Below are positions 31,870 through 50,441 of a stretch of 64,000 bases of DNA, in pieces (positions within the stretch are counted from its first letter, which is position 1; each line of letters opens with the position of its first letter). Where the stretch lies: the NCBI GenBank assembly GCA_036744005.1, contig DAINOJ010000012.1, positions 180-64,179 on the forward strand, given 5' to 3'. Below the pieces are notes generated by a model, which searched no databases, was not told the DNA's origin, and was given only the letters and a program-made list of their open reading frames with translations. This DNA comes from Bacillota bacterium (GTDB taxonomy: Bacteria > Bacillota > JAAYKD01). Made by a program: the position numbers and the translations under genes.

Positions 31870-31933
31870 AATCCCATAGAATTAAAATGATAGAGTCTCT
31901 TTGTTGGCATAATTAAAAAATGGAGGTAGAAAC

Positions 31934-34849
31934 ATGAAGTTACGGAAAATGTGGCTCAACATCAATGGCGTCAACCGTATTTTTATCTGCAATCCGGAAA
32001 AGGATTCTTTAGCCGATGTTTTGCGGCGTATCGGTCTAACAGGCACCAAAATCGGATGCGGAACTGGGGTTTGCGGCTCCTGCTCTGTGATTCTCGATGG
32101 GGAAGTCATTCGTTCTTGTGTGCGAAAAATCAAAACGGTCAAAGAATACAGCAAAATTATCACCATTGAAGGAATCGGTACCCCTACCTATCAGCACCCC
32201 TTGCAAGTAGCATTCATGAATTGCGGTGCAGTCCAATGTGGTTTTTGTTCCCCAGGATTCATTGTCGCTGCTTATGCTCTCTTAGAAAAGAACAACAATC
32301 CCTCCCGTAACGAAGTACGTCAATGGTTCCAAAAGCATCGCAATATTTGCCGTTGCACCGGGTATAAGCAAATCGTCGACGCGGTCATGGCCGCTGCCAA
32401 AGTCGTTCGCGGTGAAGCTACCATCGATGAGATTACCTTCCAATTGCCGGAAGACAACGAATACTACGGCAAACCTCTTGTTCGCCCCAATGCTTTGGCT
32501 AAGGTAACCGGTACTGCCGATTATGGTGATGATCAGGAATTAAAAATGCCTGCGGAATCCTTACATGCCGTTATGGTACAACCCCGTGTGGCGCATCACG
32601 CTAAAATACTAAAAATAGATACAGAAGAAGCTTCCCAAATGCCCGGAGTCGTCAAAATCGTGACTCATAAAGAATTGAAAGAAGCCGGCGGCACCAATGT
32701 GATGGCGGAAGGTCAATTCCACGAAAGAACCACGGTTATGGTACCTAGCCGCAAAGTGTTATGTGAAGATCGAATTTATCGTTATGGCGATGCTGTTGCC
32801 GTTGTGGTGGCGGACACCAAAGATCATGCCCGTGCTGCTGCAGAAAAGGTAAAAGTAGAAATCGAACAACTTCCTGAATACTTGAGTTATTTGGAAGCCG
32901 TTATGCCCGATGCCATACGCATTCACGAAGATACCCCCAATATTTTCTGTGTTCAGCCCACTCTGAAAGGTGTAGGGTTGGAAGATCCCAACAAAGTAGC
33001 AGAAGTCATTGATGATTCTGTTTATAGTGTGGAGGGAAGTTTCCACTCTACCCGCGAACCCCATCTTTCTGTTGAAGGCGATACCATTCAGGCTTACTTT
33101 GATGAAGAGGATAATTTAACCTTCCAATGCAAATCCCAGGGTGTTTATTCCTCCTTAGGTCGTATTGGTGACTCTTTGGGCGTTCCCAAAGCCAAAATGC
33201 GCATCATTATGAACCCTACCGGTGGTTCATTTGGCTGGTCCACGAATGCCGGGGATTTGGTCTTAGCCGGTGCTGCCGCCGTTGTCACCAAAATGCCGGT
33301 TGCACTTTCCATGACCTATGAAGAGCATCATCATTACAGCGGGAAACGCTGCCCCTCTTATTCCAACGCTCGTTTGGCTTGCGATGCTGCCGGGAAAATC
33401 ACAGCAGCAGAGTTTGATTTTGGATACGACCATGGTGCTTATTCTTGGGGTGGAGACGACTTAATCACCAAACCGGCACGATTTGCTTTCTTCCCTTATA
33501 GCATTCCCAATGTAGCCGGATTATCAAGAATTGCCAATACCAACCATAACTATGGTACTGCATATCGTGCTTATGGCTCACCACAAGCATATACAATGGG
33601 CGAGGCCATGATGGATCTGCTTGCTGAAAAAGCAGGTATCGATCCGTTTGAGTTCCGTTGGAGAAACATTGCCAGAGAAGGCGAAACCAATATCAATAGC
33701 TATCCGTTCCGTCAATACCCCATGGAAAAAATCATGGAAACCATGAAACCTCATTACGATCGAGCTGTAGCCGAAGCGAAAGCTGCGACAACACCTGAAA
33801 AACGTCGAGGAGTCGGCCTTTCATGGGGTGGTTTTAACGTAACAGAAGGTGGTACCGATAAAGCGACAGTAGCCCTTGAGATTGCTCCAAATGGTATGTT
33901 CTACAAGTATGATACCTACCAAAACTTGGGACAGGGCGGAGACATCGGCTCTTTAATGCTGACTCTTGAAGCGTTAAAACCATTGAAGGTAAAGCCGGAC
34001 CAAATACGTCTGATCCAAAACGATACGAAGATCTGTCCGGATAGCGGTATGTCGGGTGCCAGCAGAACCCATTTCATGAGCGGTAACGCCACGAAAATTG
34101 CCGGAGAAAAACTCATGGATGCCATGAGAAAGCCCGATGGAACTTATCGAACCTATGAAGAAATGGTCGCCGAAGGGCTACCGACCAAGTATGAAGGGAC
34201 CTTCTCCAATACATCCATCCCCGGGCTATGTCGATTAGATCCCAACACGGGAATCGGTGATCCCACTCCGGCTTATACTTACATTTTAAATATGGCAGAA
34301 GTGGAAGTCGATACTGCTACTGGGAAGACAACTGTGCTTCGCTTTACTGCTGTTGACGATGTAGGTAAAATTGGCAACATTGATGCCGTAAACGGTCAGG
34401 CTTATGGCGGTATCTCTCATGCAATTGGTTTTGCCTTGAGCGAAAATTATGATGATGTCAAAAAGCATACCAATCCCTTGACCAGTGGAGTACCCTATAT
34501 TCTGGATATTCCCGATGAAATTGAAGTCATTCACTATGAACGTCCCGATGAAGCAGGTCCCTTTGGATCCTCTGGTGCTTCTGAGGCCTTCCAATCTTCT
34601 GGTCATGTTGCCGTATTGAATGCCATCCACAACGCTTGCGGTGTTCGTATTTACGAAATGCCCGCTACCCCAGAGAAGGTCAAAGCCGGTCTCGAAATTC
34701 TGGCTAAAGGCGGCAAAATTCTGCCAACCAAATACTTCCTTGGCTCTGATCTCTATGAAGAGCTAGAGAACATCAAAGCCAACCCTGTCAAAGTCGGGGC
34801 TGAAGATTACTTCGTGCCGTTGGGTACCGGAGCAGAAAAATTCTTCTAA
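31934..34849 (+). CDS. Xanthine dehydrogenase family molybdenum hydroxylase with fused N-terminal [2Fe-2S] domains and a molybdopterin-binding catalytic domain (no FAD domain)
   Basis: 971-aa ORF. N-terminal plant-type ferredoxin cluster motif CGTGVCGSCSV and second cluster motifs CGFCSPG..CRCTGY are followed by aldehyde-oxidase/XDH a/b hammerhead and Mo-cofactor-binding regions. RBS GGAGG is 7 nt upstream. Confidence 0.85.
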   Translation: MKLRKMWLNINGVNRIFICNPEKDSLADVLRRIGLTGTKIGCGTGVCGSCSVILDGEVIRSCVRKIKTVKEYSKIITIEGIGTPTYQHPLQVAFMNCGAVQCGFCSPGFIVAAYALLEKNNNPSRNEVRQWFQKHRNICRCTGYKQIVDAVMAAAKVVRGEATIDEITFQLPEDNEYYGKPLVRPNALAKVTGTADYGDDQELKMPAESLHAVMVQPRVAHHAKILKIDTEEASQMPGVVKIVTHKELKEAGGTNVMAEGQFHERTTVMVPSRKVLCEDRIYRYGDAVAVVVADTKDHARAAAEKVKVEIEQLPEYLSYLEAVMPDAIRIHEDTPNIFCVQPTLKGVGLEDPNKVAEVIDDSVYSVEGSFHSTREPHLSVEGDTIQAYFDEEDNLTFQCKSQGVYSSLGRIGDSLGVPKAKMRIIMNPTGGSFGWSTNAGDLVLAGAAAVVTKMPVALSMTYEEHHHYSGKRCPSYSNARLACDAAGKITAAEFDFGYDHGAYSWGGDDLITKPARFAFFPYSIPNVAGLSRIANTNHNYGTAYRAYGSPQAYTMGEAMMDLLAEKAGIDPFEFRWRNIAREGETNINSYPFRQYPMEKIMETMKPHYDRAVAEAKAATTPEKRRGVGLSWGGFNVTEGGTDKATVALEIAPNGMFYKYDTYQNLGQGGDIGSLMLTLEALKPLKVKPDQIRLIQNDTKICPDSGMSGASRTHFMSGNATKIAGEKLMDAMRKPDGTYRTYEEMVAEGLPTKYEGTFSNTSIPGLCRLDPNTGIGDPTPAYTYILNMAEVEVDTATGKTTVLRFTAVDDVGKIGNIDAVNGQAYGGISHAIGFALSENYDDVKKHTNPLTSGVPYILDIPDEIEVIHYERPDEAGPFGSSGASEAFQSSGHVAVLNAIHNACGVRIYEMPATPEKVKAGLEILAKGGKILPTKYFLGSDLYEELENIKANPVKVGAEDYFVPLGTGAEKFF

Positions 34850-34936
34850 AAACAAACATCAACCACCGTTGGGGAGGGGATGCTTTACCCACAATGGGCG
34901 AACATCTCCTCCCTCCCCCATATAAAGGAGGATACG

Positions 34937-37126
34937 ATGCGCGAATTTCAAGAAATTCTCAAAGATTGTTTACGTGACGAACCTCCTTTTTGTACATCGG
35001 TTTGTCCATTTGACTTAGATATTCGAGATTTTATCGTTAAGTTACAACGAGGTAGTTTCAACGGAGCATTTCGTTTGTATCAGAATACAGTGGGATTCCC
35101 TGGAATTGTTTCTAAAATTTGTCCCCATCCCTGTCATAACGCTTGTATTCGTAAACAAACCGATGAAACGATTGATTTGCAACGACTGGAACAAGCTGCT
35201 GTATCTTTTGCGAACAATACCACGCCAAACCGTTATTTCTTGCCGGCAAAAGGAAAGAAAATTGCCATTATTGGTGCAGGTCTGGGTGGTTTGGGAGCTG
35301 CTTTGCGTTTAACCGCCAGAAAATATGACGTTGAGATGTACGAAAAAAGCTCTCGACTTGGTGGAAGTCTCTGGAATCTGCTACCCCCTGAAGATTTTCT
35401 ACCCGATATTCAAAAACAATTTGAAAACGAGCAGTTCACCATTCACTTCAATACAGAGATAACTTCTTTCAATCAAATCTCTGCCGATGCCATATTGATT
35501 GCCACCGGTTCAAAGGGACCTACCTTTTCAGATCAACCGGGTGTGTTTCGGTGTGCAACCGGTCACCCTGTAGAAGCGCTTGCTTCAGGATTGGTTATGG
35601 CCGGTGCTATAGAAGGATTTTTGAAATCCGGAGTGATGCGTTTGCCGGAACCAAAACCACCCACTCGTTTGGTCATGGACCCACAGTTCATTCATCCCTT
35701 GCCGAGTACACTTTCACCCAATGGAACACTCAGCAAAGAGGAAGCTATTACAGAATCTCGAAGATGCCTAAAGTGTCAGTGTGATGCTTGTATACGCCAC
35801 TGTGACTTAATGAAGTTTTACGGGAAAGCTCCAAAGCGTATCGAAGAGGAAGTGGAGATCACCATTCATCCCGGCACATTAGATGGAAACGGAACCGTGG
35901 CGACACGACTCATCGCCACTTGTAATCATTGCGACGTTTGCAAGCTCGTTTGTCCTCAGGGCATCGATACCGGGGCGTTCTTGTTACAAAGTCACCGTGC
36001 CATGGAAGAAAAAGGAGCCATGCCTTGGGTCTTCCACGAGTTTTGGTTAAGAGATATGAACTTCTCCAATGGTGAGGAAGCTGCTGTTCGTTTTCAACCG
36101 CCAGGATACTCAGCCTCCCCTTGGATGTATGTACCCGGCTGCCGTTTAGGTGGCAGTGACCCGAATTATGTGTTACATAGTTATGAATACATGCTTCAGG
36201 AAGCCCCCAACACCGCGTTGTTGCTGAATTGTTGTGGTGCACCGGCTCTATGGGCAGGGCAGCAACCGGTTTTTGAACAGACATTGAATCAAATCCGTGC
36301 AGATTGGATCTCGTTTGGAAAACCCACTGCTGTTTTTGCTTGTAGTACGTGTCAAAGAATCTATGGAGATTATTTACCGGAGATTCCCGGGGTTTCCATT
36401 TTCGAGTGGATGAACGAGCGTCATTATACCCCACCCCTAAAGGAAAATCTTCCTGTATGTGTCTTTGATCCTTGTCAATCGGCGGGACACCCGGAAATAC
36501 AGCAAGCGGTTCGCGATTTGGTCCGTCGGAGTGGTCACAACATTGCTCAAGAATTGGATCTTCCTCTATGCTGCGGCTGGGGGGGGCAAGTTTCCATTGC
36601 AAATCCAAAATATTTTGAAGGCGTGGTTCGTAGTCGGAGTGCGGATAGTACTCTTCCCTATGTGACGTATTGCGCCAATTGCCGAGATGTATTTGCCTCT
36701 TCTGGTAAATCTGCCTTTCACATCTTTGACCTATTATTTAGATTAAACCATACCCCCGAATCCTCAGCCGAGTTGCGTGGCGCGCCCAGTCCCAGCTTAT
36801 CTCGGCAAAACCGACGTCAATTAAAAACGCAGCTGTATCAACGTTATTTTGGGGAGGAATGGAAGATGTCTCAACCTCAACTTCGCTTACTCATTCGGGA
36901 AGAACTTAAGGAGAAACTGAATCGTTCCATGATACTTATCGAAGATTTGGAATCCGTGGTGGCTTATTGCGAGAAGACCGATGCTAAAATTCAGCATTCC
37001 GATGGTAGCTTTTCCGGGTATTTAATGATTGGTCAAATGACGTTTTGGGTGCAGTATCGCCTTTGTGATCAGGGGTTCATCTTGGAAAATGCTTATTGTC
37101 ACCGGATGCAGATTGGAGAGTCTTAA
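34937..37126 (+). CDS. Multidomain oxidoreductase: GltD/DPD-like FAD-binding module, two 4Fe-4S ferredoxin motifs and two C-terminal CCG domains (HdrD/GlpC-like)
   Basis: N-terminal Fe-S region (CTSVCP...CPHPCHNAC). FAD dinucleotide fold (KIAIIGAGLGGLGAA). 4Fe-4S motifs (CLKCQCDACIRHC and CNHCDVCKLVCP). CCG motifs (LLLNCCGAPALW, LPLCCGWGGQ). Start at ATG 34937 with RBS GGAGG 5 nt upstream. Confidence 0.7.
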   Translation: MREFQEILKDCLRDEPPFCTSVCPFDLDIRDFIVKLQRGSFNGAFRLYQNTVGFPGIVSKICPHPCHNACIRKQTDETIDLQRLEQAAVSFANNTTPNRYFLPAKGKKIAIIGAGLGGLGAALRLTARKYDVEMYEKSSRLGGSLWNLLPPEDFLPDIQKQFENEQFTIHFNTEITSFNQISADAILIATGSKGPTFSDQPGVFRCATGHPVEALASGLVMAGAIEGFLKSGVMRLPEPKPPTRLVMDPQFIHPLPSTLSPNGTLSKEEAITESRRCLKCQCDACIRHCDLMKFYGKAPKRIEEEVEITIHPGTLDGNGTVATRLIATCNHCDVCKLVCPQGIDTGAFLLQSHRAMEEKGAMPWVFHEFWLRDMNFSNGEEAAVRFQPPGYSASPWMYVPGCRLGGSDPNYVLHSYEYMLQEAPNTALLLNCCGAPALWAGQQPVFEQTLNQIRADWISFGKPTAVFACSTCQRIYGDYLPEIPGVSIFEWMNERHYTPPLKENLPVCVFDPCQSAGHPEIQQAVRDLVRRSGHNIAQELDLPLCCGWGGQVSIANPKYFEGVVRSRSADSTLPYVTYCANCRDVFASSGKSAFHIFDLLFRLNHTPESSAELRGAPSPSLSRQNRRQLKTQLYQRYFGEEWKMSQPQLRLLIREELKEKLNRSMILIEDLESVVAYCEKTDAKIQHSDGSFSGYLMIGQMTFWVQYRLCDQGFILENAYCHRMQIGES

Positions 37127-37127
37127 A

Positions 37128-37331
37128 ATGGAACAGAAAACAGAAAAAGAACCCTTAATCTGCCATCGATGTCAGATGCCATTAATGGAAACGAAAACTT
37201 TTTTCAAGTATCTGGGTCACAGTTTTCATACCGATATCCCTACCTGTCCCAAATGTGGATTGGTTTATATTTCTGAAGCATTGGCGAAAGGACGCATGGC
37301 CCAGGTGGAACAGGAATTGGAGGACAAATAA
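37128..37331 (+). CDS. Small YgiT-type zinc-finger protein
   Basis: 67 aa with CHRC...17...CPKCGLVY, matching the MqsA-N-terminal/YgiT zinc ribbon pattern. RBS GGAGAG is 7 nt upstream. It begins 2 nt after the upstream stop. Confidence 0.5.
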   Translation: MEQKTEKEPLICHRCQMPLMETKTFFKYLGHSFHTDIPTCPKCGLVYISEALAKGRMAQVEQELEDK

Positions 37332-38626
37332 TGCCCGAGATACTGCGTCATACCTATAGCCTTTGTCCGGTATGTCAAAAAAAACTGGAAGCCGTTTATG
37401 TCCGTCGAGACGTTGCGGTATGCTTTGAATTAATTTGCCCAACACATGGCTCCTTTTCCACTCCGGTCTGGTATAATCGTGTCAGCGGAGCTGCCTGGAC
37501 AAATGTAGAGGACGAACTGACCGTTCCTCCACCCTGCCCGGATGCCTGTGGGTTATGCCCGGAACATCGCCAGGATACCTGTTGTGTCGTTTTGGAAATC
37601 ACCAAACGTTGCAACCTTACTTGTCGTTTCTGCTTTGCCGATGGAGGCAAAGGGGAGGATGTACCATTTGCCAACTTGCAACAAGCGTTTGCCGACATGG
37701 TGAAACAATCCAAAACTTTGGTACAGCTTTCGGGAGGAGAACCGACTCTGCGAGAGGATTTACCTCTAGTCATTGAAGCGGCAAAAAAAGCCGGCTTGCT
37801 GTATGTGCAACTCAACACCAACGGGTTGCGCTTAGCAGAAGATCCTGCTTACGCCATACGTTTGGCGAATGCGGGTTTATCTTTTGTCTTTTTGCAATTT
37901 GACGGTCTTTCTTCTTCGGTTTATGAGTCACTGAGAGGGCGCGACCTTCTCGAGTTAAAAAAACAGGCCATAGCCCATTGCAATGATGCTGGCTTAGGAG
38001 TCACCTTGGTGATGACAGTGGTTCCCGGTGTTAACGATCAGCAAATCGGTGATGTTTTACAGTTTGCTTGGGAACAATCTCCGGTCATTCGGGGTGTTAA
38101 CTTACAACCTGTTAGCTACTTTGGTCGCACTCCCAATTCCACCTCTCCTTTTGAACATCTTACCCTAGATACCCTAGCAGAAGAAATCGAAAAGCAAACT
38201 CACGGTGTTATTCCATCATCGAAACTTTTTCCAGCTCAGAATGATCATCCCTTATGCGGATTTCACGGAGACTTCGTGATCACATCAGAAGGTTTGCCGA
38301 AAGCGCTTTCGATGCCATCCAAAAAATGTACTTGTGGTAAAGGCTTAGTTTCTTCGGTTCCCAAACGCGAATTTTTGGCCAGAAGATGGCAAAGGAAACC
38401 TTCCATCTTTGACGGGAACCAAACACACCAAAGTCATGATTTGTTTGATTTGGAGTATTTTGCTCAACGAGTTCAGAGCCATGGTTTCACGATTACAGCA
38501 ATTTCGTTTCAGGACGCCGAAAATCTTGATTTGGAGCGCTTACAACGATGCCGTTTACATGTCTATGACCAAGGACGCATGATTCCTTTCTGTGCCTATT
38601 ATTATACCCCTCGGAGGTTGTTATGA
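37331..38626 (+). CDS. Radical SAM enzyme with an N-terminal zinc-ribbon/Cys-rich extension
   Basis: CX3CX2C motif RCNLTCRFC. MoaA/NifB-like core motifs (SGGEPTL, NTNGL). An N-terminal CPVC...CPTHG plus CPDACGLCPEH region; additional C-terminal cysteines. Confidence 0.8.
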   Translation: MPEILRHTYSLCPVCQKKLEAVYVRRDVAVCFELICPTHGSFSTPVWYNRVSGAAWTNVEDELTVPPPCPDACGLCPEHRQDTCCVVLEITKRCNLTCRFCFADGGKGEDVPFANLQQAFADMVKQSKTLVQLSGGEPTLREDLPLVIEAAKKAGLLYVQLNTNGLRLAEDPAYAIRLANAGLSFVFLQFDGLSSSVYESLRGRDLLELKKQAIAHCNDAGLGVTLVMTVVPGVNDQQIGDVLQFAWEQSPVIRGVNLQPVSYFGRTPNSTSPFEHLTLDTLAEEIEKQTHGVIPSSKLFPAQNDHPLCGFHGDFVITSEGLPKALSMPSKKCTCGKGLVSSVPKREFLARRWQRKPSIFDGNQTHQSHDLFDLEYFAQRVQSHGFTITAISFQDAENLDLERLQRCRLHVYDQGRMIPFCAYYYTPRRLL

Positions 38627-40378: not shown

Positions 40379-40390
40379 GGAGGAGAAATC

Positions 40391-40705
40391 ATGGAATTCA
40401 AAAACGCTACGGTTGTAGCAAAAGCGAATATCTACTTCGAGGGCAAAGTAACCAGTCGAACCATTTTTACCGCGGAAGGTGTGAAGAAAACTTTAGGAAT
40501 CTTCTTGCCCGGAGAATACCGTTTTCAGACGGGAGCCGAAGAGCTTATGGAGATTTTAGCAGGCAGAGTAGATATTCGTTTGTCCGGAGAACAAGTGTAT
40601 ACCCTCTATACTGCAGACACACACTTCAACGTTCCAGCGAATTCATTTTTTGACTTAAAAGTCTATGAAGTCACCGATTATTGCTGTACTTACTTGGAAG
40701 CATAA
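40391..40705 (+). CDS. ppnP: Pyrimidine/purine nucleoside phosphorylase PpnP (DUF1255 cupin)
   Basis: 104 aa with NIYFEGKV...GEYRF.T...E.M.I..G...DW..Y.AG..F.VP..S.F.L.V.E.T.YCC.Y pattern matching YaiE/PpnP. RBS GGAGG. Confidence 0.75.
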   Translation: MEFKNATVVAKANIYFEGKVTSRTIFTAEGVKKTLGIFLPGEYRFQTGAEELMEILAGRVDIRLSGEQVYTLYTADTHFNVPANSFFDLKVYEVTDYCCTYLEA

Positions 40706-40793
40706 CGGTCATCATGAACCCGGCAGACATCTGCCGGGCTCTTACAAGCAATCGTTATGTTTTCAAATACCATTCGAAGAAAGGAGACCTTCT

Positions 40794-41759
40794 ATGAGAA
40801 CCGGAGCTGTTATTGTTGCCGCCGGCTTGTCTTCCCGAATGAAGTCCTTTAAACCTCTGCTTCAGCTAGCTGGATCCACGGTCATCCGTACTGCCATTGA
40901 AACCTTGGTTGCAGCCAATGTTTCTCCGATTATCGTTGTAACAGGCCGAGATGCAGATTTATTGCAGCGACATTTGGTGAACCTTCCGGTACAATGCATA
41001 TATAATAAAGATTATGCTACAACAGATATGTTTTTCTCTGCGAAGCTAGGTATGAAGCAAATCCGCACCCTTTGTGATCGATTTTTCTTCTTACCGGTCG
41101 ACGTTCCTCTGTTCTCCAAACGAAGTTTATTGACGATGATGGGCTACTTTGACTATTCTCGGTCCGAAATATTGGTTCCCTCTTATAAAGGACAGGAAGG
41201 TCATCCGGTCCTAATGGACGCTATGCAGATTGATGAGTTGCTAAAAGATTCTGGAGAACAAGGTCTTAAGGGCGCTTTGGAACGGTTAACCAGCCATAAA
41301 GAAGTATTGGAGTTACCGGATGCCGGGACGATAATGGATGCCGATAAACCGGAAGAGTACCAACAATTGAAGCGCTATGCTGCCAATATGGCGCAGGCAG
41401 ATCCGTTAACATTGCAATTGGATGTGACGATTTTACGGAAAGAACCGTTTTTTAACAAAACATTTGCGCGTCTCCTCCGTGCAGTGGAACGAACTCAGTC
41501 CATTCGGCAAGCTTGTCTTCTGCAGCATATCTCTTATTCCAGTGGTTGGAAGCAAATAAAAATGGCGGAAAGCCAGTTAGGCTTTCGTTTGGTGGATAGT
41601 CAGCAGGGTGGACAAAAAGGCGGTCAAACACACTTAACCGAACAAGGATCGGAGTTTTTGAACACATACACCTCTTATCATCTTGAATTAGAACGATTAG
41701 GCGAAACCCTTTTCAGGGATAGATTTCAACAATTTCTGGAGTTAGAGGAAGCAAAGTAA
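40794..41759 (+). CDS. MocA-like molybdenum-cofactor cytidylyltransferase fused to a C-terminal ModE-type winged-helix HTH domain
   Basis: N-terminal MobA/MocA NTP-transferase motif (GAVIVAAGLSSRMKSFKPLL). The C-terminal region matches the ModE N-terminal DNA-binding domain (ISYSSGWKQIKMAESQLGFRLVDSQQGGQKGGQTHLTEQG vs ISYKSAW...GGKGGGGAVLT). Start at ATG 40794 with RBS AAGGAG. Confidence 0.7.
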   Translation: MRTGAVIVAAGLSSRMKSFKPLLQLAGSTVIRTAIETLVAANVSPIIVVTGRDADLLQRHLVNLPVQCIYNKDYATTDMFFSAKLGMKQIRTLCDRFFFLPVDVPLFSKRSLLTMMGYFDYSRSEILVPSYKGQEGHPVLMDAMQIDELLKDSGEQGLKGALERLTSHKEVLELPDAGTIMDADKPEEYQQLKRYAANMAQADPLTLQLDVTILRKEPFFNKTFARLLRAVERTQSIRQACLLQHISYSSGWKQIKMAESQLGFRLVDSQQGGQKGGQTHLTEQGSEFLNTYTSYHLELERLGETLFRDRFQQFLELEEAK

Positions 41760-41772
41760 TGGAGGAGGACGC

Positions 41773-42864
41773 ATGATACAACATCTCTTCTTACAAGGTC
41801 CTTCGGGGATTGGAAAATCCACCGCGTTGCTTCGTGCTTTACAACAAAGTGCTCTTCCCGTCGGTGGTTTCTTGACCCAACGATTGTTCCGCCAGGGAAG
41901 ATTATACGGATATGCTATGATTCCTGCGGAACAAGCAACTCGTGTGTATGATGATGCCACATACGAAAATCCATCTTGTTTTTTGAAAGCGGAAGCCGGT
42001 CAATTAACCTTTGACTCAACCCGATTCTTGACCGACTTTCTGAGCTTCACTTCTCATGGCTCCATATTGCTGTTGGATGAAATTGGCGGAGCGGAGTTGA
42101 TGATACCGGAAATCCGTCAAGCAATTCAATTGGTATTGGAAAAGCCCATCCCTATCTTAGGTGTATGGAAATCTCGGGAAAACCTACTTCACATGATACA
42201 TCACGGAAAAGCTCCTATTGAATTGTTGTCTTATCATCAAGAAATGGAACGACTACTATCTTCTCAAAAACAAACCTTACTGTTAGATGGTATACCAAAT
42301 GATGCAGAGTTATTGCGGTTCATAAGAAGTAATGGCCTTAGCAAAGACTTACCTGGGCGGTCCTTTTGCATGGAGCGATTATCCAATTGCTCAGAAGCCA
42401 TTCGCAAGCATTGTCTACTGGTCGCCAAAACAACAGAAGCCCTTTGCTTTGCCTTCTCTGCTAAGGATCCGGAAATGCTTCTTCAGGCGGCGCTACTCCA
42501 CGATGTCGAGCGCCACAGTCCTCATCATGATCAGAAATTAGCCCAAGAAATGGTCGAAGCCGGATACATTAGGTTAGCTTCATGTATTCGACAGCATATG
42601 CATCTACAAGAGGAGTTCTATCATTGCGACGAAGCATTGCTTTGGCTAGCCGATAAATGCTGCTTGGAAGACCAACTTGTACACCCGAAAATTCGCTTTG
42701 AAGAAAGTATCCTACGATATGGGCCGACAGACCGCATAAAAAAGAATCTAAGGGCTTTACAATCCTTTGCACTTTCGGATCAATGGGATCCGAAGAAATT
42801 ATTCCTTCAAGGAGGTTCCTATGAAAACAATCTTTTCCGCCTTACTGAAGACGCTTGCAGTTGA
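41773..42864 (+). CDS. P-loop NTPase (THEP1-like) fused to an HD-domain phosphohydrolase
   Basis: Walker A LQGPSGIGKST and Walker B LLLDEIG. The C-terminal HD motif is LLHDVERH, with a further His/Asp. RBS GGAGGAGG. Confidence 0.65.
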   Translation: MIQHLFLQGPSGIGKSTALLRALQQSALPVGGFLTQRLFRQGRLYGYAMIPAEQATRVYDDATYENPSCFLKAEAGQLTFDSTRFLTDFLSFTSHGSILLLDEIGGAELMIPEIRQAIQLVLEKPIPILGVWKSRENLLHMIHHGKAPIELLSYHQEMERLLSSQKQTLLLDGIPNDAELLRFIRSNGLSKDLPGRSFCMERLSNCSEAIRKHCLLVAKTTEALCFAFSAKDPEMLLQAALLHDVERHSPHHDQKLAQEMVEAGYIRLASCIRQHMHLQEEFYHCDEALLWLADKCCLEDQLVHPKIRFEESILRYGPTDRIKKNLRALQSFALSDQWDPKKLFLQGGSYENNLFRLTEDACS

Positions 42865-43822
42865 AGATGCTGTGTTGGTTACCATTGTCGCAGGCTCTGG
42901 TTCTACTCCCCGCGGTGCAGGTGCAGCGATGGTAGTGAAAAAGGAAGGGCGCGTTACAGGTACCATAGGTGGTGGTGCTGTGGAATACAAGTCTCAGCAA
43001 TTGGCCATAGAACTTTTGCTGCAAAAATCGCATGGACAAAAGGAATTTCTCCTGACTCCCAATCAAGTCGAAGACCTTGGCATGGTTTGTGGCGGAGATG
43101 TTCGAGTGTATTTTCGCTTTTTTTCAAAAGACAATATCTCTGAGAAACTTTTTATTGAAACCGTACTACAACGCTTTCATAAAGATGAAGACAGTTGGTT
43201 TCTAATGGATCTTCCACACAATCTTTTGGGTTTATATTCTGTTTCAGAAGGGTTTCAGGGATTCACGATTCCTGAAGAGCAACTGAAAGATCTTCTGCGC
43301 TTCAAAGCAGTAGAAAAAAGTGGCATCTATGCTCATCCTTTGAAATCAAGTGGCAAAGTAGTGGTCTTTGGCGGGGGGCATGTTGCACAAGAGTTGATTC
43401 CAATTCTTACTCAGGTGCATTTTACGTGTTATGTCTATGACGACCGACCTGACTTTGTTACGGAATCTTTGTTTCCTCAAGCAGCCGCACGAATCTTGGG
43501 CTCATTTGAGCAAATAGATCAATATGTTGACTTACAGGAGTGTGATTATGCCGTCGTGATGACTCGTGGTCACTCGTATGATTACATTGTTCAAAAACAG
43601 CTACATCGTCGTCCCTTAGCTTACTTGGGTATCATAGGAAGTCGTAAGAAAATGGCTACCGTCTTTGAACGTCTGAGAGAAGATGGCATCTCACAAGACC
43701 AACTCGCTACCGTGTATACCCCCATTGGACTACCGATAAAAGCAGAAACACCCGCGGAAATCGCTGTATCCATTGCTGCCGAAATGATTCGTGTACGGGC
43801 AGAACGGAAAGAACGATCATGA
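42821..43822 (+). CDS. XdhC/CoxI family molybdenum-hydroxylase cofactor-insertion accessory protein
   Basis: XdhC N-terminal (VTIVAGSGSTPRGAGAAMVV) and Rossmann-like (VVFGGGHVAQEL) segments. Start at ATG 42821 with RBS GGAGG 6 nt upstream. Confidence 0.8.
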   Translation: MKTIFSALLKTLAVEDAVLVTIVAGSGSTPRGAGAAMVVKKEGRVTGTIGGGAVEYKSQQLAIELLLQKSHGQKEFLLTPNQVEDLGMVCGGDVRVYFRFFSKDNISEKLFIETVLQRFHKDEDSWFLMDLPHNLLGLYSVSEGFQGFTIPEEQLKDLLRFKAVEKSGIYAHPLKSSGKVVVFGGGHVAQELIPILTQVHFTCYVYDDRPDFVTESLFPQAAARILGSFEQIDQYVDLQECDYAVVMTRGHSYDYIVQKQLHRRPLAYLGIIGSRKKMATVFERLREDGISQDQLATVYTPIGLPIKAETPAEIAVSIAAEMIRVRAERKERS

Positions 43823-44841
43823 CCAACCATCGAAAATCTTTATGGTTGTTACTATCCTTTACACTTTTATTGTTCGCCTTGATCTTATTGTCCTTTTTAC
43901 TGGGTCGCTATCCGATTTCTCCCATGGAGTTATTCCGCACAGTTGGAGAGCGCATACTACGCACAAACCAATCCTTGAATCGTCCCGTGACAGCGACCGA
44001 AACCGTTCTATGGAACATTCGTTTACCTCGTGTGTTAGCCGCTTGTTTTGTCGGTGCGTGTCTTTCGGCGGCAGGGGCTGCTTATCAAGGCGTCTTTCAA
44101 AACCCTATGGCTTCTCCTGATATTCTTGGTGCAACCGCCGGAGCTGCCTTTGGTGCAGCATTTGCCATCCTCATGGACTTTAGTCAAACCGGTATTGTCT
44201 TATCTGCCTTCTCCTTTAGTATCGTTGCTGTTGCATTGGTTTGGATGGTAGGGCAACGAGCCAGAGGGAGTCGTGTCTTAGGATTGATTTTATCGGGTAT
44301 CATGATTGGTTCTTTGTTCTCTGCAGGGACATCCTTTATCAAACTGGTTGCAGATCCTCAGGACCAGTTGCCGGCTATTACATATTGGCTCATTGGTAGT
44401 CTTGCAGGTGTTCAGCAAACCGATGTGATGTTTGTAAGTCCGATCATGATCCTTGGTTTACTGACTTTGCTGTTAGTTCGTTGGCGAATCAATTTACTAA
44501 CCCTGGGCGACGAACAGGCTCGTGCTTTGGGTGTCAATGCCCAAAGATTACGGTTGGTGGTGATCCTTTCTTCCACTTTAATCACCGCTTCTGCTATATC
44601 GATTAGTGGGATGATTGGCTGGGTTGGTTTGGTGATACCTCATTTATCTCGACGGTTAGTTGGGAGTAATTATCGTTACTTAATGCCCTTATCTATGATT
44701 TTTGGAGCAGCCTTTCTTTTAGCGGTCGACAATGTATCACGCACACTCATGACGACAGAAATCCCCATAGGAATTCTGACTGCCGTGATTGGTGCACCCT
44801 TCTTTCTTTTCCTAATGACACAAAAGGAGGGAACGATGTGA
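43819..44841 (+). CDS. FecCD-family ABC transporter permease (metal-chelate/cobalamin type)
   Basis: 340-aa polytopic membrane protein with the FecCD signature region. Its ATG overlaps the XdhC stop (ATGA). Confidence 0.85.
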   Translation: MTNHRKSLWLLLSFTLLLFALILLSFLLGRYPISPMELFRTVGERILRTNQSLNRPVTATETVLWNIRLPRVLAACFVGACLSAAGAAYQGVFQNPMASPDILGATAGAAFGAAFAILMDFSQTGIVLSAFSFSIVAVALVWMVGQRARGSRVLGLILSGIMIGSLFSAGTSFIKLVADPQDQLPAITYWLIGSLAGVQQTDVMFVSPIMILGLLTLLLVRWRINLLTLGDEQARALGVNAQRLRLVVILSSTLITASAISISGMIGWVGLVIPHLSRRLVGSNYRYLMPLSMIFGAAFLLAVDNVSRTLMTTEIPIGILTAVIGAPFFLFLMTQKEGTM

Positions 44842-45623
44842 GTATTCTTGTCAAACATCTATCTTTTTCATATCACTCTCATCCTGTTCTGAACGATATC
44901 TCCTTTCATGTAAACACCGGAGAAATCCTAGCATTATTGGGCCCCAATGGGGTTGGGAAAAGCACTCTATTTCACTGCATCCTTGGCATACAACCAGATT
45001 ATTCGGGCTCTATATGGATTCATCATCAAGAAGCCAAGCGATTGTCGGCAAAAGCCTTAGCATCACAGATCGCGTATATACCACAAATACAGAAAACAGC
45101 TTTTCATTACAGCGTCTTGGATATGGTTCTGATGGGTACTACCGCTCAGTTGCAGTTGTTTCAGCAGCCTGGACCCTTGGAACTGCAACGAGCACGGGTT
45201 GCCCTAGAACGCTTTCGTATCTCACATTTAGCTCATCGCGAGTTCGATCGACTGAGTGGTGGAGAATGCCAGCTAACACTCATTGCTAGAGCGGTCGCTC
45301 AAGGGGCAAAGATTCTTCTACTGGATGAACCCACAGCCAGCTTAGATTATGGTAATTCCCATCGAGTGATGGAAGAGATCTATCAATTGCGTGATGAAGG
45401 GTATACCATTTTATTCTCTACACATGACCCGAATCAAGCACTTACCTATTCCAATTCGATTTTAGCTTTACATGAGGGAGAAGTTGCTGCCTTTGGCCTG
45501 ACAGAGCAAGTTTTGCAGGCAGATCTCATGGAAAAGCTCTATCAAATTTCCGTCTCATTTGAACAAATCGGCAATATACAGAAGAAAATCTGTATTCCGT
45601 TGCCGCGAAAGGAAGTATTTTAA
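44838..45623 (+). CDS. ABC transporter ATP-binding protein (FepC/BtuD type)
   Basis: Walker A GPNGVGKST, ABC signature LSGGE, Walker B LLLDEP. GTG start overlapping the permease stop. Confidence 0.85.
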   Translation: MSILVKHLSFSYHSHPVLNDISFHVNTGEILALLGPNGVGKSTLFHCILGIQPDYSGSIWIHHQEAKRLSAKALASQIAYIPQIQKTAFHYSVLDMVLMGTTAQLQLFQQPGPLELQRARVALERFRISHLAHREFDRLSGGECQLTLIARAVAQGAKILLLDEPTASLDYGNSHRVMEEIYQLRDEGYTILFSTHDPNQALTYSNSILALHEGEVAAFGLTEQVLQADLMEKLYQISVSFEQIGNIQKKICIPLPRKEVF

Positions 45624-45624
45624 A

Positions 45625-46671
45625 TTGAAAAAACTACTTGTACTCTTTCTAGTCCTCGCTTTGTTTATGAGTGGTTGTAATACCACAGCTCCTGAGGTTC
45701 TAAAACCCCTTCCAACTACCCAGACCTTTACCGATTCGAGCGGTCGAAGTGTTGAGCTTCCTTTAGAGGTTACACGAATTGCAGCATCCGGGTCCATGGC
45801 TCAAATGTTTTTATTTGCGCTTTGTCCAGAATATTTGGTTGGTCTTGCTTCTCCTTGGAGCCAGGAAGCAGAAAAATACATTCAAACGGAGTATTATAAA
45901 CTGCCTGTACTAGGGCAATTTTATGGAACCGGCACACTAAACATGGAGGAAGTTGTCAAAACAGCACCTCAAGTGATTATTGATGTAGGGGAAGCCAAGA
46001 AAAGCATTGTTGAAGATATGGATTCCATTATGAAACAAGTGAATATTCCCACCATCCACATTGAAGCAACAACGGAGACTACTGCTGATGCCTATCGCCT
46101 ATTAGGAAAACTACTCAATCGCGAAGAAAAAGCGGAAAAGCTGGCTAGTTATATTGAAAAGACATTACAGCAAGTGAATAAGACCGTTAGTACCGTCGAG
46201 AAATCCTCTGTACTTTATCTCTTGGGCAATAATGGGCTGAATGTTTTAGCAAAGACATCTTTCCATGCAGAAGTTATTGACCATGTTTCCAATAACGCCG
46301 CAATCATAGAACAACCTTCTTTTAAAGGTTCGGGTAACGAAGTGGACTTTGAACAATTACTGCTCTGGGATGCCGATGTGCTCTTAGTTGCTCCCGATAG
46401 TATTTACGATGAAATTATCCAAGATGCAAGTTGGCAACAACTTCGTGCAGTCCAGAATGGACAACTATATCGGGTTCCCAGTGGACCTTATAATTGGATT
46501 ACCAATCCTCCTTCTGTCAATATTTATCTTGGTATGTTATGGCTAACCGATTTGCTTTACCCAGAAAATGTGGAGTATGACTTATTCAAAGAAGTCACCG
46601 AATATTATCGCCTTTTCTATGGTCATGAACTAACTTTAGAGGAGTTTACATCATTAACTGCACATCCATAG
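45625..46671 (+). CDS. TroA/BtuF-class periplasmic-binding lipoprotein of the ABC importer
   Basis: TTG start giving MKKLLVLFLVLALFMSGC with lipobox. RBS AAAGGAAG is 9 nt upstream. Class III SBP size and pattern. Confidence 0.7.
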   Translation: MKKLLVLFLVLALFMSGCNTTAPEVLKPLPTTQTFTDSSGRSVELPLEVTRIAASGSMAQMFLFALCPEYLVGLASPWSQEAEKYIQTEYYKLPVLGQFYGTGTLNMEEVVKTAPQVIIDVGEAKKSIVEDMDSIMKQVNIPTIHIEATTETTADAYRLLGKLLNREEKAEKLASYIEKTLQQVNKTVSTVEKSSVLYLLGNNGLNVLAKTSFHAEVIDHVSNNAAIIEQPSFKGSGNEVDFEQLLLWDADVLLVAPDSIYDEIIQDASWQQLRAVQNGQLYRVPSGPYNWITNPPSVNIYLGMLWLTDLLYPENVEYDLFKEVTEYYRLFYGHELTLEEFTSLTAHP

Positions 46672-46815
46672 AAAACTCCTACATAAGGTGGTCACAGAGA
46701 CTTCTTTCGTCAAGGTCGTACATTACGTTTACTACATATATTAGATGAAGATTGCACATTCCGTTCTCCTATGATAAAGTATGCATATTAGAAACATTGA
46801 AAGGAGAGCGTTCCT

Positions 46816-47370: not shown

Positions 47371-47394
47371 TACAATTCGTTAGGAGGGGTCCAT

Positions 47395-47931: not shown

Positions 47932-47932
47932 A

Positions 47933-47963
47933 CGAAGGGCTCACCTTAACGGTGAGCCCTTCG
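47933..47963. terminator. Bidirectional terminator between convergent ppa and gyrA
   Basis: 13-bp GC-rich stem CGAAGGGCTCACC / GGTGAGCCCTTCG with a 5-nt loop, immediately after the ppa stop and just 3' of gyrA. Confidence 0.6.
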
Positions 47964-47975
47964 TTAACGATATCA

Positions 47976-50423: not shown

Positions 50424-50441
50424 TTGCTAAACTCCCCCTTT

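Follow-up and report, generated by a model that had tools for sequence, protein, structure and literature searches.

The 13 genes at 31934-46671 of the window (the 64,000 nt stretch of a Bacillota contig that was analysed) form a genuine gene cluster, which is probably an aldehyde oxidoreductase (AOR) operon of the Desulfovibrio MOP type, with a neighbourhood like that of D. vulgaris DVU_1551-DVU_1559 and the mechanism proposed below. All 13 genes are on the + strand, with open reading frames at the coordinates given here, and they overlap or are tightly packed.

Judged by its sequence, the 971 aa product of the first gene (31934-34849) belongs squarely to the Desulfovibrio MOP-type aldehyde oxidoreductases, a characterised family whose members carry molybdopterin as molybdopterin cytosine dinucleotide (MCD). 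It scores 1151 bits against NF045668 (molybdopterin-dependent aldehyde oxidoreductase; cut-off 1100) and aligns over its full length, at 795 bits, with the crystallised D. desulfuricans and D. gigas enzymes (PDB 1DGJ and 1SIJ/1VLB, respectively). Its C-terminal G-x-G-E motif also aligns at the Glu (PFGSSGASE here, PFGASGVGE in the comparator). A single polypeptide includes the Pfam domains Fer2, Fer2_2, Ald_Xan_dh_C and MoCoBD_1/2, namely two [2Fe-2S] domains and the Moco domains without an FAD domain, and no FAD subunit of the enzyme was found by Pfam or NCBIfam anywhere in the operon. As originally predicted, the enzyme belongs to the xanthine oxidase family, lacks FAD and has its FeS and Moco parts fused. 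It ends in a C-terminal tail of ~50 aa that is kept across phyla but is not present in the 905-912 aa Desulfovibrio enzymes. An identity of the xdh, nicotinate or purine-hydroxylase type was rejected, as every such NCBIfam model was far under its cut-off, and the earlier view that this is not one of those classical clusters holds. However, the suggestion that the system is undescribed does not, as the enzyme passes NF045668 and the accessory neighbourhood has already been modelled in NCBIfam. The original prediction had named a characterised family with a known neighbourhood as the finding that would count against it, and this is essentially what the match to 1DGJ and 1SIJ/1VLB and the Desulfovibrionaceae loci described next represent.

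Eight accessory genes here match curated NCBIfam models that were built around the D. vulgaris DVU_1551-1559 neighbourhood, for which there are models for DVU_1551, 1553, 1555, 1556 and 1557, the XdhC-family AOR maturation factor and TrsS. Matches to NF045663, NF045645 and NF045667 are above the cut-offs, while NF045646, NF045666, NF045664 and NF045665, the last split between two genes, are the best matches yet slightly under theirs. The DVU_1555-type C_GCAxxG_C_C gene is not in this window, and is found in 28 of the 50 AOR loci. These loci come from a sample of 80 genome loci found via TrsS, 50 of which include an AOR (defined as at least 50 % identity). Among the 50, the gene for the FeS/CCG partner is present in 49, where it adjoins the AOR gene, the zinc ribbon in 43, and the methyltransferase and the ligase in 38 each, these counts being lower bounds as many loci end at contig ends. 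Conservation of the neighbourhood, a check suggested with the original prediction, is evident: the complete six-gene core was found in 32 loci, and its order and strand are the same in every one of them. The cluster occurs in taxa that include Bacillota, Bacteroidota, Acidobacteriota, Synergistota, Spirochaetota and Ca. Vecturithrix. The Desulfovibrionaceae loci contain the same families, and one AOR there is 89 % identical to the 1DGJ protein.

Start codons were picked from the ribosome-binding site and from where the family models begin. The open reading frame of the second gene opens with an ATG at 34880, 30 nt after the AOR gene, but 34937, which leaves a gap of 87 nt, has the better ribosome-binding site and agrees with the beginning of the family model. 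The next junctions are, in order, +1, -1 (TAATG), -4 (ATGA, where the methyltransferase start overlaps the TrsS stop), -17 and +12 nt. The last six are +88 nt, between the PpnP and MocA-HTH genes, then +13, -44, -4 (ATGA, where the permease start overlaps the XdhC stop), -4 (where the ATPase gene, which starts with GTG behind a ribosome-binding site, overlaps the permease gene) and +1 nt. The true start of the MocA-HTH gene is probably the ATG at 40794, which also has a ribosome-binding site. The packing originally described, with gaps of 0-30 nt or overlaps throughout, applies to 11 of the 12 junctions if the 34880 start is used, but not to the ~88 nt between the PpnP and MocA-HTH genes nor, if 34937 is the start, to the first junction, which is then of similar length. 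Scans of the operon for promoters and terminators did no better than shuffled sequence. All 13 genes are found in the same order in one other locus (L001), with proteins that are 50-95 % identical, and the ten operon genes covered by a contig with 90 % DNA identity (L081) are likewise in unchanged order, so the arrangement is not due to chance.

The second gene (34937-37126) encodes an FeS/FAD/CCG oxidoreductase that scores 680.7 bits against NF045663 ('diclust_near_Sec'; cut-off 530). Its Pfam domains are Fer4_20, NAD_binding_8/Pyr_redox_2 (an FAD-type Rossmann fold, short at ~160 aa), Fer4_17 (a 4Fe-4S dicluster) and CCG, and the N-terminal 150-200 aa resemble an NfnB/GltD-type electron-transfer module. 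The 67 aa Cys4 zinc ribbon encoded by the third gene (37128-37331) scores 86.5 bits against NF045645 (cut-off 60) and 92 bits against PF24292. Because its match to an MqsA-like model reaches only E = 0.0013, these model scores favour placing it in the DUF7479 / DVU_1557 family rather than calling it YgiT; apart from this name, all of the earlier domain calls were reproduced with Pfam and NCBIfam. Nitratidesulfovibrio termitidis (L082) has DUF7479 as a C-terminal extension of its FeS/CCG oxidoreductase and, given this fusion and the NfnB/GltD-like N-terminus, the oxidoreductase is likely to be the electron-transfer partner of AOR.

The next gene (37331-38626) encodes TrsS (431 aa, Cys form), a radical SAM protein published by Haft & Tolstoy, 2025 (as cited in PMC13188914). 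It scores 475 bits against NF045646, just below the cut-off of 490, and has Zn_ribbon_HMPTM and Radical_SAM domains. It aligns end to end with its homologues, in which the Cys/His motifs are invariant, and it lies within an AOR-linked clade of the TrsS tree. Derived TrsS clades from which AOR was lost are instead paired with ArsR regulators, CobW-like metallochaperone GTPases and MbdU-like DUF5714 proteins. The DVU_1556-family class I SAM methyltransferase (38623-39243) scores 173 bits against NF045667 (cut-off 155) and matches Methyltransf_11, and the DVU_1553-family PaaK-like adenylate-forming ligase (39227-40378) scores 285.7 bits against NF045666 (cut-off 300), matches AMP-binding and has PaaK structures as its best PDB matches (54 bits). 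For these three genes 'uncharacterised' is a fair description, but 'undescribed' is not.

The product of the gene at 40794-41759 combines a MocA-like Moco cytidylyltransferase domain with a ModE-type HTH. It matches NTP_transf_3 (102 bits), the N-terminal half of NF045665 (197 bits), TIGR00637 (ModE_repress) and HTH_1, and scores 127.6 bits against TIGR03310 (MocA; cut-off 186). The following gene (41773-42864) encodes a fusion of a THEP1-like P-loop NTPase_1 with an HD phosphohydrolase, with matches to PF03266 (54.8 bits) and, weakly, to HD/HDIG, and its HD part scores 74 bits against the C-terminal half of NF045665. In this DVU_1551 model, MocA-like and HD domains are combined, whereas here they are carried by two genes. 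A stand-alone NTPase_1 gene is found directly upstream of a FecCD permease gene in three loci (L086, L089 and L090). The XdhC-family Moco chaperone and insertion factor (42821-43822) matches XdhC_CoxI and XdhC_C, and scores 277.7 bits against NF045664 ('XdhC family aldehyde oxidoreductase maturation factor'; cut-off 350). The earlier argument that MocA and XdhC indicate an MCD cofactor with dedicated maturation is supported, as MocA, XdhC, MoCF_biosynth and ModE-HTH genes recur in AOR clusters; the presence of MocA-like and XdhC-like genes here speaks for a step devoted to making MCD and inserting it. The PpnP-family cupin (40391-40705), annotated as a pyrimidine/purine nucleoside phosphorylase, scores 115 bits against PF06865 and 66 bits against NF007875, under the cut-off of 143, and a homologue adjoins the AOR cluster in 12 of the 50 loci.

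The last three genes encode an ABC importer, consisting of a type II (FecCD/BtuC-fold) permease (43819-44841), an ATPase (44838-45623) and a substrate-binding lipoprotein (Peripla_BP_2; 45625-46671). The best solved homologues of the permease are HI1471 (MolB; 234 bits), then HmuU (170 bits) and BtuC (119 bits), and that of the ATPase is HI1470 (MolC; 150 bits). The binding protein has a signal peptide with the lipobox LFMSGC and matches PF01497, and its highest-scoring PDB matches are three structures whose ligands are unknown, with MolA (HI_1472; 49 bits, C-terminal part only) coming next. MolBC-A (HI1470/71/72), a molybdate/tungstate importer, is the best functionally characterised solved homologue of all three subunits, and molybdate or tungstate would be our best single guess for the substrate, though a tentative one. 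There is not far from an even chance that the importer carries a corrinoid, a metal chelate or a metal other than these, its adjacency to AOR then being unrelated to Mo supply. The match of the binding protein to MolA is weak and partial. Permease and binding-protein relatives at 55-65 % identity, which are uncharacterised but nearer than MolBC-A, occur in several contexts not linked to Mo: together with CobW, DUF364, NTPase_1 and a methyltransferase in modules that are conserved (L087, L092 and L093), beside a CobN-type chelatase (L091), or beside the corrinoid activator RACo (L088), where the binding protein is annotated as corrinoid-binding. Relatives of the binding protein at 50-58 % identity are found with CobW/DUF364 and in other contexts. 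However, in addition to the MolBC-A homology, translation of the importer genes is coupled to that of XdhC, the relatives that come nearest, with at least 60 % identity, are all within AOR clusters (L001, L003, L081, L086 and probably L090), and in L089 a more distant relative adjoins both a TOBE/Mop gene and MoeA. Only a few lineages, which are close relatives, have the importer.

In the mechanism that we favour, AOR would convert aldehydes to carboxylates at a Mo centre with MCD, and the two electrons would pass via the two [2Fe-2S] clusters to the FeS/FAD/CCG oxidoreductase and the DUF7479 zinc ribbon, leaving these for a thiol/disulfide-type or other low-potential acceptor. The MocA-like domain would use CTP to convert Mo-MPT to MCD, which the XdhC-like protein would hold and insert, with the HD and NTPase_1 domains as nucleotide-handling accessories. 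The ModE-type HTH may provide local regulation, possibly Mo- or cofactor-responsive, and the importer would be a lineage-specific, translationally coupled addition that supplies metal. From their context, we infer that TrsS (Tes/HMPTM-like), the DVU_1556 methyltransferase and the DVU_1553 ligase serve maturation or partner-making for AOR and not catabolic steps.

It is possible, but unlikely, that TrsS and the methyltransferase, perhaps with the ligase and the redox proteins, modify the pterin cofactor, or that TrsS installs a labile Mo ligand that is lost in aerobic purification, in which case MOP-type AORs would have a non-canonical cofactor state in vivo. The TrsS zinc ribbon is named after the archaeal hydroxymethylpterin dimethyltransferase, a name that JGI gives to some homologues, and TrsS is distantly related to MoaA and tightly linked to a pterin enzyme and MocA/XdhC across phyla; the pairing of AOR-less clades with metallochaperone-type genes is also consistent with this role. 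However, the 1.28 Å D. gigas structure (1VLB) reportedly contains standard MCD and no protein modification, and D. gigas AOR is active without a sulfido ligand. A stable modification should have been seen, since the crystallised D. desulfuricans AOR has a close relative in the same module. The standard MCD of the D. gigas structure also counts against the maturation role proposed above for the TrsS trio.

More doubtful again is a separate small-molecule or lipid pathway, in which AOR oxidises a pathway aldehyde, the ligase activates the acid, and the methyltransferase and TrsS C-methylate or C-C couple an alkyl chain. Possible products are a lipid, a thiol cofactor or a metallophore, and in the last case the metal complex could enter via the ABC importer. 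The order aldehyde, acid, acyl-adenylate makes natural enzymatic sense, and AOR clusters repeatedly contain DUF364 ('heavy-metal chelation'), FecCD importers and a second aldehyde dehydrogenase. The match of TrsS to the tetraether synthase GDGT-MAS/Tes (7TOL) reaches 231 bits (E = 1.6e-67), and bacterial Tes homologues have been proposed to be membrane-spanning-lipid synthases (PMC8941075). However, TrsS is under the cut-off of the Tes model (296 against 450 bits), the conserved core contains no lipid-synthesis or carrier-protein gene, the cluster is always accompanied by Moco maturation genes, and the importer is confined to few lineages. Desulfovibrio is not known to produce membrane-spanning lipids.

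The organism uses selenocysteine, as originally predicted, since the PrxU gene is genuine, with an in-frame TGA at 20211-20213, but PrxU says nothing about the operon enzyme. The further suggestion of a selenium-dependent Mo hydroxylase, with a labile Se ligand on Mo and purine, nicotinate or other N-heterocycle substrates, is highly improbable despite the XdhC-like and MocA-like genes: no operon protein matches the SDMH markers YqeB (TIGR03309) or YqeC (TIGR03172), AOR scores 371 bits against Se_dep_XDH (TIGR03311; cut-off 830), the enzyme passes the aldehyde oxidoreductase model but is far under the cut-offs of the XDH, PucD, 4-HBCR and nicotinate-type models, all operon genes encode full-length Cys forms with no in-frame TGA, and no TGA aligns to Cys among the homologues in the 80 loci. 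Some TrsS and C_GCAxxG_C_C family members in other organisms are selenoproteins, according to NCBIfam names and PMC13188914, and selenium in the AOR neighbourhood, where present, is selenocysteine in accessory proteins and not a Mo ligand. The operon, with its catalogued but uncharacterised helper set, represents a further case of a known system rather than a new selenium-dependent one.

The operon comprises 13 genes, all on the plus strand, between 31934 and 46671 in the window. Start codons were picked using the ribosome-binding site and the position at which the family models begin to align. Gene 1 (31934-34849) encodes the aldehyde oxidoreductase (AOR; NF045668), and is followed by genes for an FeS/FAD/CCG oxidoreductase (gene 2, 34937-37126, in an ORF that opens at 34880; NF045663), a zinc-ribbon protein named as a DVU_1557 family redox protein (gene 3, 37128-37331; Pfam DUF7479), the radical SAM protein TrsS (gene 4, 37331-38626; NF045646), a DVU_1556 family methyltransferase (gene 5, 38623-39243; NF045667) and a DVU_1553 family AMP-dependent CoA ligase (gene 6, 39227-40378; NF045666). 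Next are PpnP (gene 7, 40391-40705; Pfam/NCBIfam), a MobA-like NTP transferase fused to a ModE-type HTH (MocA-HTH; gene 8, 40794-41759), a P-loop NTPase_1 domain fused to an HD domain (NTPase_1-HD; gene 9, 41773-42864) and XdhC (gene 10, 42821-43822; NF045664). The last three genes encode a type II ABC importer, made up of a FecCD-type permease (gene 11, 43819-44841), an ATPase (gene 12, 44838-45623) and a substrate-binding lipoprotein (SBP; gene 13, 45625-46671). Every operon protein received a confident family or domain assignment, and the domain assignments made for all 13 genes in the original prediction were each reproduced by Pfam and NCBIfam.

The successive junctions are 87 (or 30), +1, -1, -4, -17, +12, +88, +13, -44, -4, -4 and +1 nt, with the permease start overlapping the XdhC stop. 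Hence, the description of 13 tightly spaced plus-strand genes is correct except for one junction of about 88 nt, and for a second if the later start of gene 2 is right. A scan of 31000-47500 for promoters and terminators returned the same counts as shuffled sequence, so a single transcript is neither favoured nor disfavoured. No Moco riboswitch or other RNA element was found, as the only Rfam matches in the whole window at the gathering threshold are two adjacent tRNA genes (15692-15844, minus strand), and a permissive RNA-family search of 29000-47500 gave no relevant match. The flanking genes are unrelated, namely an amidohydrolase, a sugar kinase, a lyxose/mannose isomerase and a pentapeptide-repeat protein upstream, and Tag glycosylase and a pyrophosphatase downstream. 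The region 47976-63993 spans the chromosomal origin region, with gyrA, gyrB, recF, dnaN and dnaA on the minus strand (47976-56877) and then jag, mnmE, mnmG and rsmG on the plus strand. These genes (gyrA to rsmG) were recognised by N-terminal sequence motifs only. The sign of the GC skew switches at approximately 52-56 kb.

AOR is a single polypeptide containing the Pfam domains Fer2, Fer2_2, Ald_Xan_dh_C, MoCoBD_1 and MoCoBD_2, and no operon protein matched an FAD domain or subunit (FAD_binding_5/CO_deh_flav_C). It scores 1151 bits (cut-off 1100) on NF045668, 'molybdopterin-dependent aldehyde oxidoreductase', with residues 5-921 aligned to model positions 2-905, and 795 bits over its full length against the crystallised Desulfovibrio desulfuricans and Desulfovibrio gigas enzymes (1DGJ; 1SIJ/1VLB). 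The glutamate of the C-terminal G-x-G-E motif is aligned (PFGSSGASE in the window AOR against PFGASGVGE in 1DGJ), and the catalytic glutamate near the C-terminus is Glu869 in D. gigas. Judged by sequence, AOR is a member of the MOP-type molybdopterin-dependent aldehyde oxidoreductases. MOP enzymes are aldehyde-oxidising proteins with molybdopterin cytosine dinucleotide (Mo-MCD) and two [2Fe-2S] clusters, and the structure of the Desulfovibrio MOP was reportedly the first to be solved in the xanthine oxidase family. Mo-MCD and aldehyde oxidation are also predicted for the window AOR, and the MocA-like and XdhC-like genes in the operon provide indirect support.

Other assignments within the xanthine oxidase family were rejected on NCBIfam scores, namely xanthine dehydrogenase (XdhA model, 285 bits, cut-off 780), purine hydroxylase (PucD, 236 bits, cut-off 784), 4-hydroxybenzoyl-CoA reductase (4-HBCR alpha, 258 bits, cut-off 995), aerobic CO dehydrogenase (CODH, 176 bits, cut-off 950), PaoC (173 bits, cut-off 1180) and nicotinate hydroxylase. 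As the models for these types fall far below their cut-offs, the original prediction was right that the cluster is unlike the xdh, nicotinate and purine-hydroxylase types.

The D. gigas and D. desulfuricans enzymes (MOP/MOD; 1VLB, 1SIJ, 1DGJ) share with the window AOR the two [2Fe-2S] and Moco domains, the lack of FAD, and the same families of adjoining accessory genes. However, the window AOR is only approximately 43-45 % identical to the Desulfovibrionaceae enzymes, and its host is a Gram-positive, Eubacteriales-like organism, unlike the hosts of the Desulfovibrio MOP. It also extends further at the C-terminus, with a tail of about 50 aa (…KYFLGSDLYEELENIKANPV…G.EKFF; 34694-34846, residues ~921-971), which is conserved right to its end in homologues from Bacillota, Bacteroidota, Synergistota, Acidobacteriota and others, whereas the 905-912 aa Desulfovibrionaceae enzymes of the crystallised branch do not have it. 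The tail may be a docking element.

Curated NCBIfam models (NF045663-NF045669, NF045645 and NF045646) are available for the DVU_1551-DVU_1559 neighbourhood of Desulfovibrio vulgaris, where DVU_1559 is the D. vulgaris Aor (PMC10920352). Gene 2 (680.7 bits on NF045663, cut-off 530), gene 3 (86.5 bits on NF045645, cut-off 60) and gene 5 (173.2 bits on NF045667, cut-off 155) score above the respective cut-offs. TrsS (475.2 bits on NF045646, cut-off 490), the ligase (285.7 bits on NF045666, cut-off 300) and XdhC (277.7 bits on NF045664, 'XdhC family aldehyde oxidoreductase maturation factor', cut-off 350) score below them, the model in each case being the best match and matching over the full length. 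These three were grouped with AOR-linked orthologues by synteny and by the TrsS tree. The 'DVU_1551 family NTP transferase' model (cut-off 315) matches two separate genes, with its N-terminal half on gene 8 (197 bits) and its C-terminal half on gene 9 (74 bits). Thus, the DVU_1551-type fusion of NTP transferase and HD domains is not found as one gene here, and both domains are present but arranged otherwise.

The window includes the AOR, FeS/CCG oxidoreductase, DVU_1557 ribbon, TrsS, DVU_1556, DVU_1553, MocA-type, HD and XdhC families of the DVU_1551-1559 neighbourhood. It differs from that neighbourhood in the fusion of MocA to a ModE-type HTH and of HD to an NTPase_1 P-loop domain, and in the addition of PpnP and the three-gene type II ABC importer. 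A further difference is the DVU_1555-family C_GCAxxG_C_C gene, which was found in 28 of 50 AOR-positive loci from other genomes (see below) but gave no match in the 64 kb window when six members were used as tblastn queries (E < 1e-3). In two relatives' loci this gene lies between PpnP and MocA-HTH (L003, 13411-13839; L086, 5094-5522), and at the same place the window (40706-40793) and a third locus, L001, have an 88-nt gap. Its absence from the window looks like a lineage-specific loss. The operon belongs to a known, catalogued neighbourhood. What is lineage-specific is that the importer and PpnP have been added, that MocA is fused to the HTH and NTPase_1 to HD, and that C_GCAxxG_C_C has been lost.

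MCD is made from Mo-MPT and CTP by MocA, and the cofactor is bound and inserted by XdhC proteins, as for PaoABC and XdhABC of Escherichia coli. As in those systems, a MobA-like NTP transferase (MocA-related) and an XdhC-family protein are encoded beside the window enzyme. However, both the MocA-like protein (127.6 bits on the MocA model TIGR03310) and the XdhC-like protein fall below the equivalog cut-offs, the MocA-like protein is fused to a DNA-binding domain, and HD and NTPase_1 domains accompany them in the window, with a histidine phosphatase in relatives.

A genome scan seeded with the TrsS alignment yielded 80 loci, which were screened by tblastn with the 13 window proteins, AOR being counted at ≥50 % identity. 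AOR was present in 50 of the 80, and the taxa include Bacillota, Bacteroidota, Acidobacteriota (Holophaga), Synergistota, Spirochaetota and Ca. Vecturithrix. Cultured relatives include Sporobacter termitidis DSM 10068 (L074) and Cuneatibacter sp. NSJ-177 (L043). Among these 50 loci, the FeS/CCG partner was found in 49, the zinc ribbon in 43, and the methyltransferase and the ligase in 38 each. These are minimum counts, since many contigs break off within the cluster. Wherever all six core genes were found (32 loci), their order and strand were the same. After the core, MocA-like and XdhC-like genes were each found in 13 loci and PpnP in 12. Clustering of ORFs also revealed recurrent neighbours that have no counterpart in the window, namely a DUF364/DUF4213 'heavy-metal chelation' protein (10 loci), a P6C-dehydrogenase-like ALDH (9 loci), a membrane protein fused to NTPase_1 (7 loci), a stand-alone ModE-type HTH (6 loci), MoCF_biosynth, and DUF5714, which is related to MbdU.

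For the crystallised branch, the 1DGJ sequence, rebuilt from its alignment to the window AOR, was used as the query and the contexts of two matches were inspected. The same set of families surrounds AOR in Nitratidesulfovibrio termitidis (L082) and in a Desulfovibrio with an AOR 89 % identical to 1DGJ. The order in these Desulfovibrionaceae is MoCF_biosynth, AOR, FeS/CCG oxidoreductase, DUF7479, methyltransferase, C_GCAxxG_C_C, TrsS, AMP ligase, XdhC (seen in N. termitidis), MocA+HD and histidine phosphatase, and the cluster genes are homologues of the window genes (29-57 % identity by tblastn). In N. termitidis, DUF7479 (DVU_1557-type) forms the C-terminal part of a 912-aa fusion with the FeS/CCG oxidoreductase (12839-15577 in L082), which argues that the two proteins work together. 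The large subunit falls in a characterised family and is encoded amid the genes that accompany this family, so the cluster does not qualify as an undescribed system, which the original prediction had considered possible.

In the literature on the D. vulgaris locus tags DVU_1553, DVU_1556, DVU_1557 and DVU_1559, only DVU_1559 (Aor) is named. The D. gigas genome paper contains no description of the mop neighbourhood, and searches found no literature linking Desulfovibrio aldehyde oxidoreductase with a radical SAM protein and XdhC, and no experimental data in the open literature on the Tes-like radical SAM protein, methyltransferase and PaaK-like ligase of these clusters.

The best characterised solved homologue of all three importer subunits is the type II molybdate/tungstate importer MolBC-A of Haemophilus influenzae (HI1470/HI1471/HI1472). 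The best solved homologue of known function for the permease is HI1471 (MolB; 234 bits, compared to 170 for HmuU and 119 for BtuC), and the best characterised solved homologue of the ATPase is HI1470 (MolC; 150 bits). For the SBP, three structures with unknown ligands score first, followed by MolA (HI1472; 49 bits), to which the similarity is partial. The window importer is linked to a molybdenum enzyme operon. However, its closer, uncharacterised relatives are found in CobW/DUF364, CobN or RACo contexts.

Among the 80 TrsS-seeded loci, the permease and SBP are found together only in L001 and L003, and L015 contains an SBP-like gene (40 % identity). SBP homologues with ≥60 % identity are in AOR clusters (L001, L003, L081, L086 and probably L090), while those with 50-58 % identity (permease 62-65 %) are outside AOR clusters. 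A metagenome scan with the SBP recovered one locus, L081 (an ERZ1645189 contig of 15.5 kb), a near-identical relative that adds no new context. It has 90 % DNA identity to window 38234-53765, its genes are collinear with those of the window from TrsS to past the importer, and it is thus from a close relative of the window organism sampled elsewhere.

In Desulfitobacterium, Desulfosporosinus and Anaerocolumna (L087, L092 and L093), importer relatives with 55-65 % identity are part of a conserved, apparently uncharacterised module in which CobW, an ABC ATPase, DUF364/DUF4213, a methyltransferase and NTPase_1 lie beside the FecCD-ABC-SBP genes. A link between the methyltransferase and NTPase_1 of these modules and those of the window was rejected, as tblastn at 1e-4 detected no similarity in these three loci. 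Among further importer relatives, the one in L091 has a CobN chelatase as its neighbour, that in L089 has NifH/NifDK-like genes together with MoeA and a TOBE protein, and that in L088 has RACo. Given these mixed contexts, molybdate or tungstate is the best single guess for the substrate of the window importer, but a tentative one rather than a conclusion.

The possibility that the enzyme is selenium-dependent had been raised. With the selenium-dependent Mo hydroxylases (the YqeB/YqeC/SelD trait) the window system shares membership in the xanthine oxidase family, an accessory protein of the XdhC type and a selenium-using host. Selenium use by the host was borne out. The window encodes a genuine selenoprotein peroxiredoxin, PrxU (ORF 20070-20681, plus strand), with an in-frame TGA (20211-20213) in the motif FTFV[U]ATE and, with U replaced by C, a score of 373.9 bits on NF040737 (cut-off 270), and this confirms that the organism uses selenocysteine. 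However, the markers of the selenium-dependent Mo hydroxylases, YqeB (TIGR03309) and YqeC (TIGR03172), do not appear among the matches listed for the 13 operon proteins and 17 flanking window proteins scanned (the best 25 families for proteins with more matches). The large subunit scores only 371.3 bits on the model for the selenium-dependent xanthine dehydrogenase (TIGR03311, cut-off 830.45). A search for selenocysteine recoding in homologues of the 13 proteins in the 80 loci returned alignment-edge artefacts only, with no TGA aligned to Cys, and the operon genes contain no recoded TGA. These results give no connection between selenium and the window Mo enzyme, and the selenocysteine in PrxU does not bear on a Se ligand on Mo. 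What is supported of the reading offered in the original prediction is MCD maturation involving MocA and XdhC, whereas novelty and selenium dependence are not.

TrsS, which has thousands of homologues, consists of an HMPTM-type zinc ribbon and a radical SAM core, with a weak match to MoaA, and its Cys/His motifs are invariant across 17 diverse members. TrsS appears as a selenoprotein family, credited to Haft & Tolstoy 2025 (mSystems 10:e0141724), in a 2026 review (PMC13188914), and WP_327020591.1 is a selenoprotein TrsS. The window TrsS is the Cys form, an uninterrupted ORF of 431 aa that aligns end-to-end with homologues. An N-terminal zinc ribbon, a radical SAM core and auxiliary Cys-rich motifs are shared with the tetraether synthase Tes/GDGT-MAS and with the archaeal hydroxymethylpterin dimethyltransferase, the source of the Pfam name Zn_ribbon_HMPTM. 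TrsS matches GDGT-MAS (7TOL) with 231 bits (E = 1.6e-67), but only the N-terminal ~310 residues align well and the C-terminal half differs. TrsS is encoded in the setting of a molybdenum enzyme rather than of lipid synthesis, and its identification as the tetraether lipid synthase Tes (NF045702) was rejected (295.8 bits, cut-off 450).

A neighbour-joining tree of 73 TrsS sequences, each marked with its context, has the AOR-linked forms in a basal, paraphyletic position, and the DUF5714-linked forms are nested inside them, as is a derived, AOR-less clade with an ArsR regulator and a CobW-like GTPase before TrsS. This pattern favours metal-centre biology over catabolism. In the eight loci of the AOR-less clade (L008, L009, L013, L017, L019, L024, L025 and L033; TrsS at ~10001-11300 in most), the CobW-like GTPase precedes TrsS in all eight and an ArsR-family metalloregulator is present in at least five. 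One database protein (P0058) is a fusion of TrsS and DUF5714.

With the enzyme family, the domain content of the 13 genes and the synteny across phyla, including the crystallised branch, established here, roles can be proposed for the remaining proteins. The FeS/FAD/CCG protein together with DUF7479 would be the electron-accepting partner of AOR, based on adjacency in 49 of 50 loci, the fusion in N. termitidis and the NfnB/GltD-like N-terminus of the FeS/CCG protein. The ModE-type HTH may provide local regulation, and the importer may supply metal. The trio of TrsS, methyltransferase and ligase could act in maturation or in making a partner, and this is the weakest step in the scheme. The 1.28 Å structure of the D. 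gigas AOR reportedly shows unmodified MCD, which makes a stable modification of the cofactor unlikely. The trio could instead install a labile ligand, modify a partner protein, or make a small molecule for redox or metal binding.

A more far-reaching proposal is that the trio, with the zinc-ribbon and C_GCAxxG-type redox proteins, constitutes a new maturation chemistry for MOP-type AORs, and we consider this improbable. It could take two forms. Either the Mo-pterin centre receives a labile modification or ligand that does not survive aerobic purification, or a small-molecule thiol or redox cofactor is made specifically for the CCG-domain partner. If the proposal were true, a textbook molybdenum enzyme would have undiscovered cofactor or partner biology, and many of the 'bacterial Tes homologs' would not be lipid synthases.

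The conserved molybdenum-enzyme context itself suggests the latter. The 'bacterial Tes homologs' (E < 1e-50) have been proposed as brGDGT synthase candidates (PMC8941075), and the window TrsS falls within this limit. As AOR-linked TrsS passes the thresholds for Tes homologues yet is found in a molybdenum context, caution is needed when such homologues are used as lipid biomarkers.

Overall, the genome-scan finding is mostly ordinary, as the enzyme and most of its neighbours can be named from existing curated models. However, the near-invariant FeS/FAD/CCG oxidoreductase with DUF7479 is a concrete candidate for the acceptor of the Desulfovibrio MOP enzyme, and the trio of a Tes-like radical SAM protein, a methyltransferase and a PaaK-like ligase accompanies AOR across several phyla. 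What continues to be of interest is what the TrsS trio does chemically and which physiological partner this textbook enzyme has.
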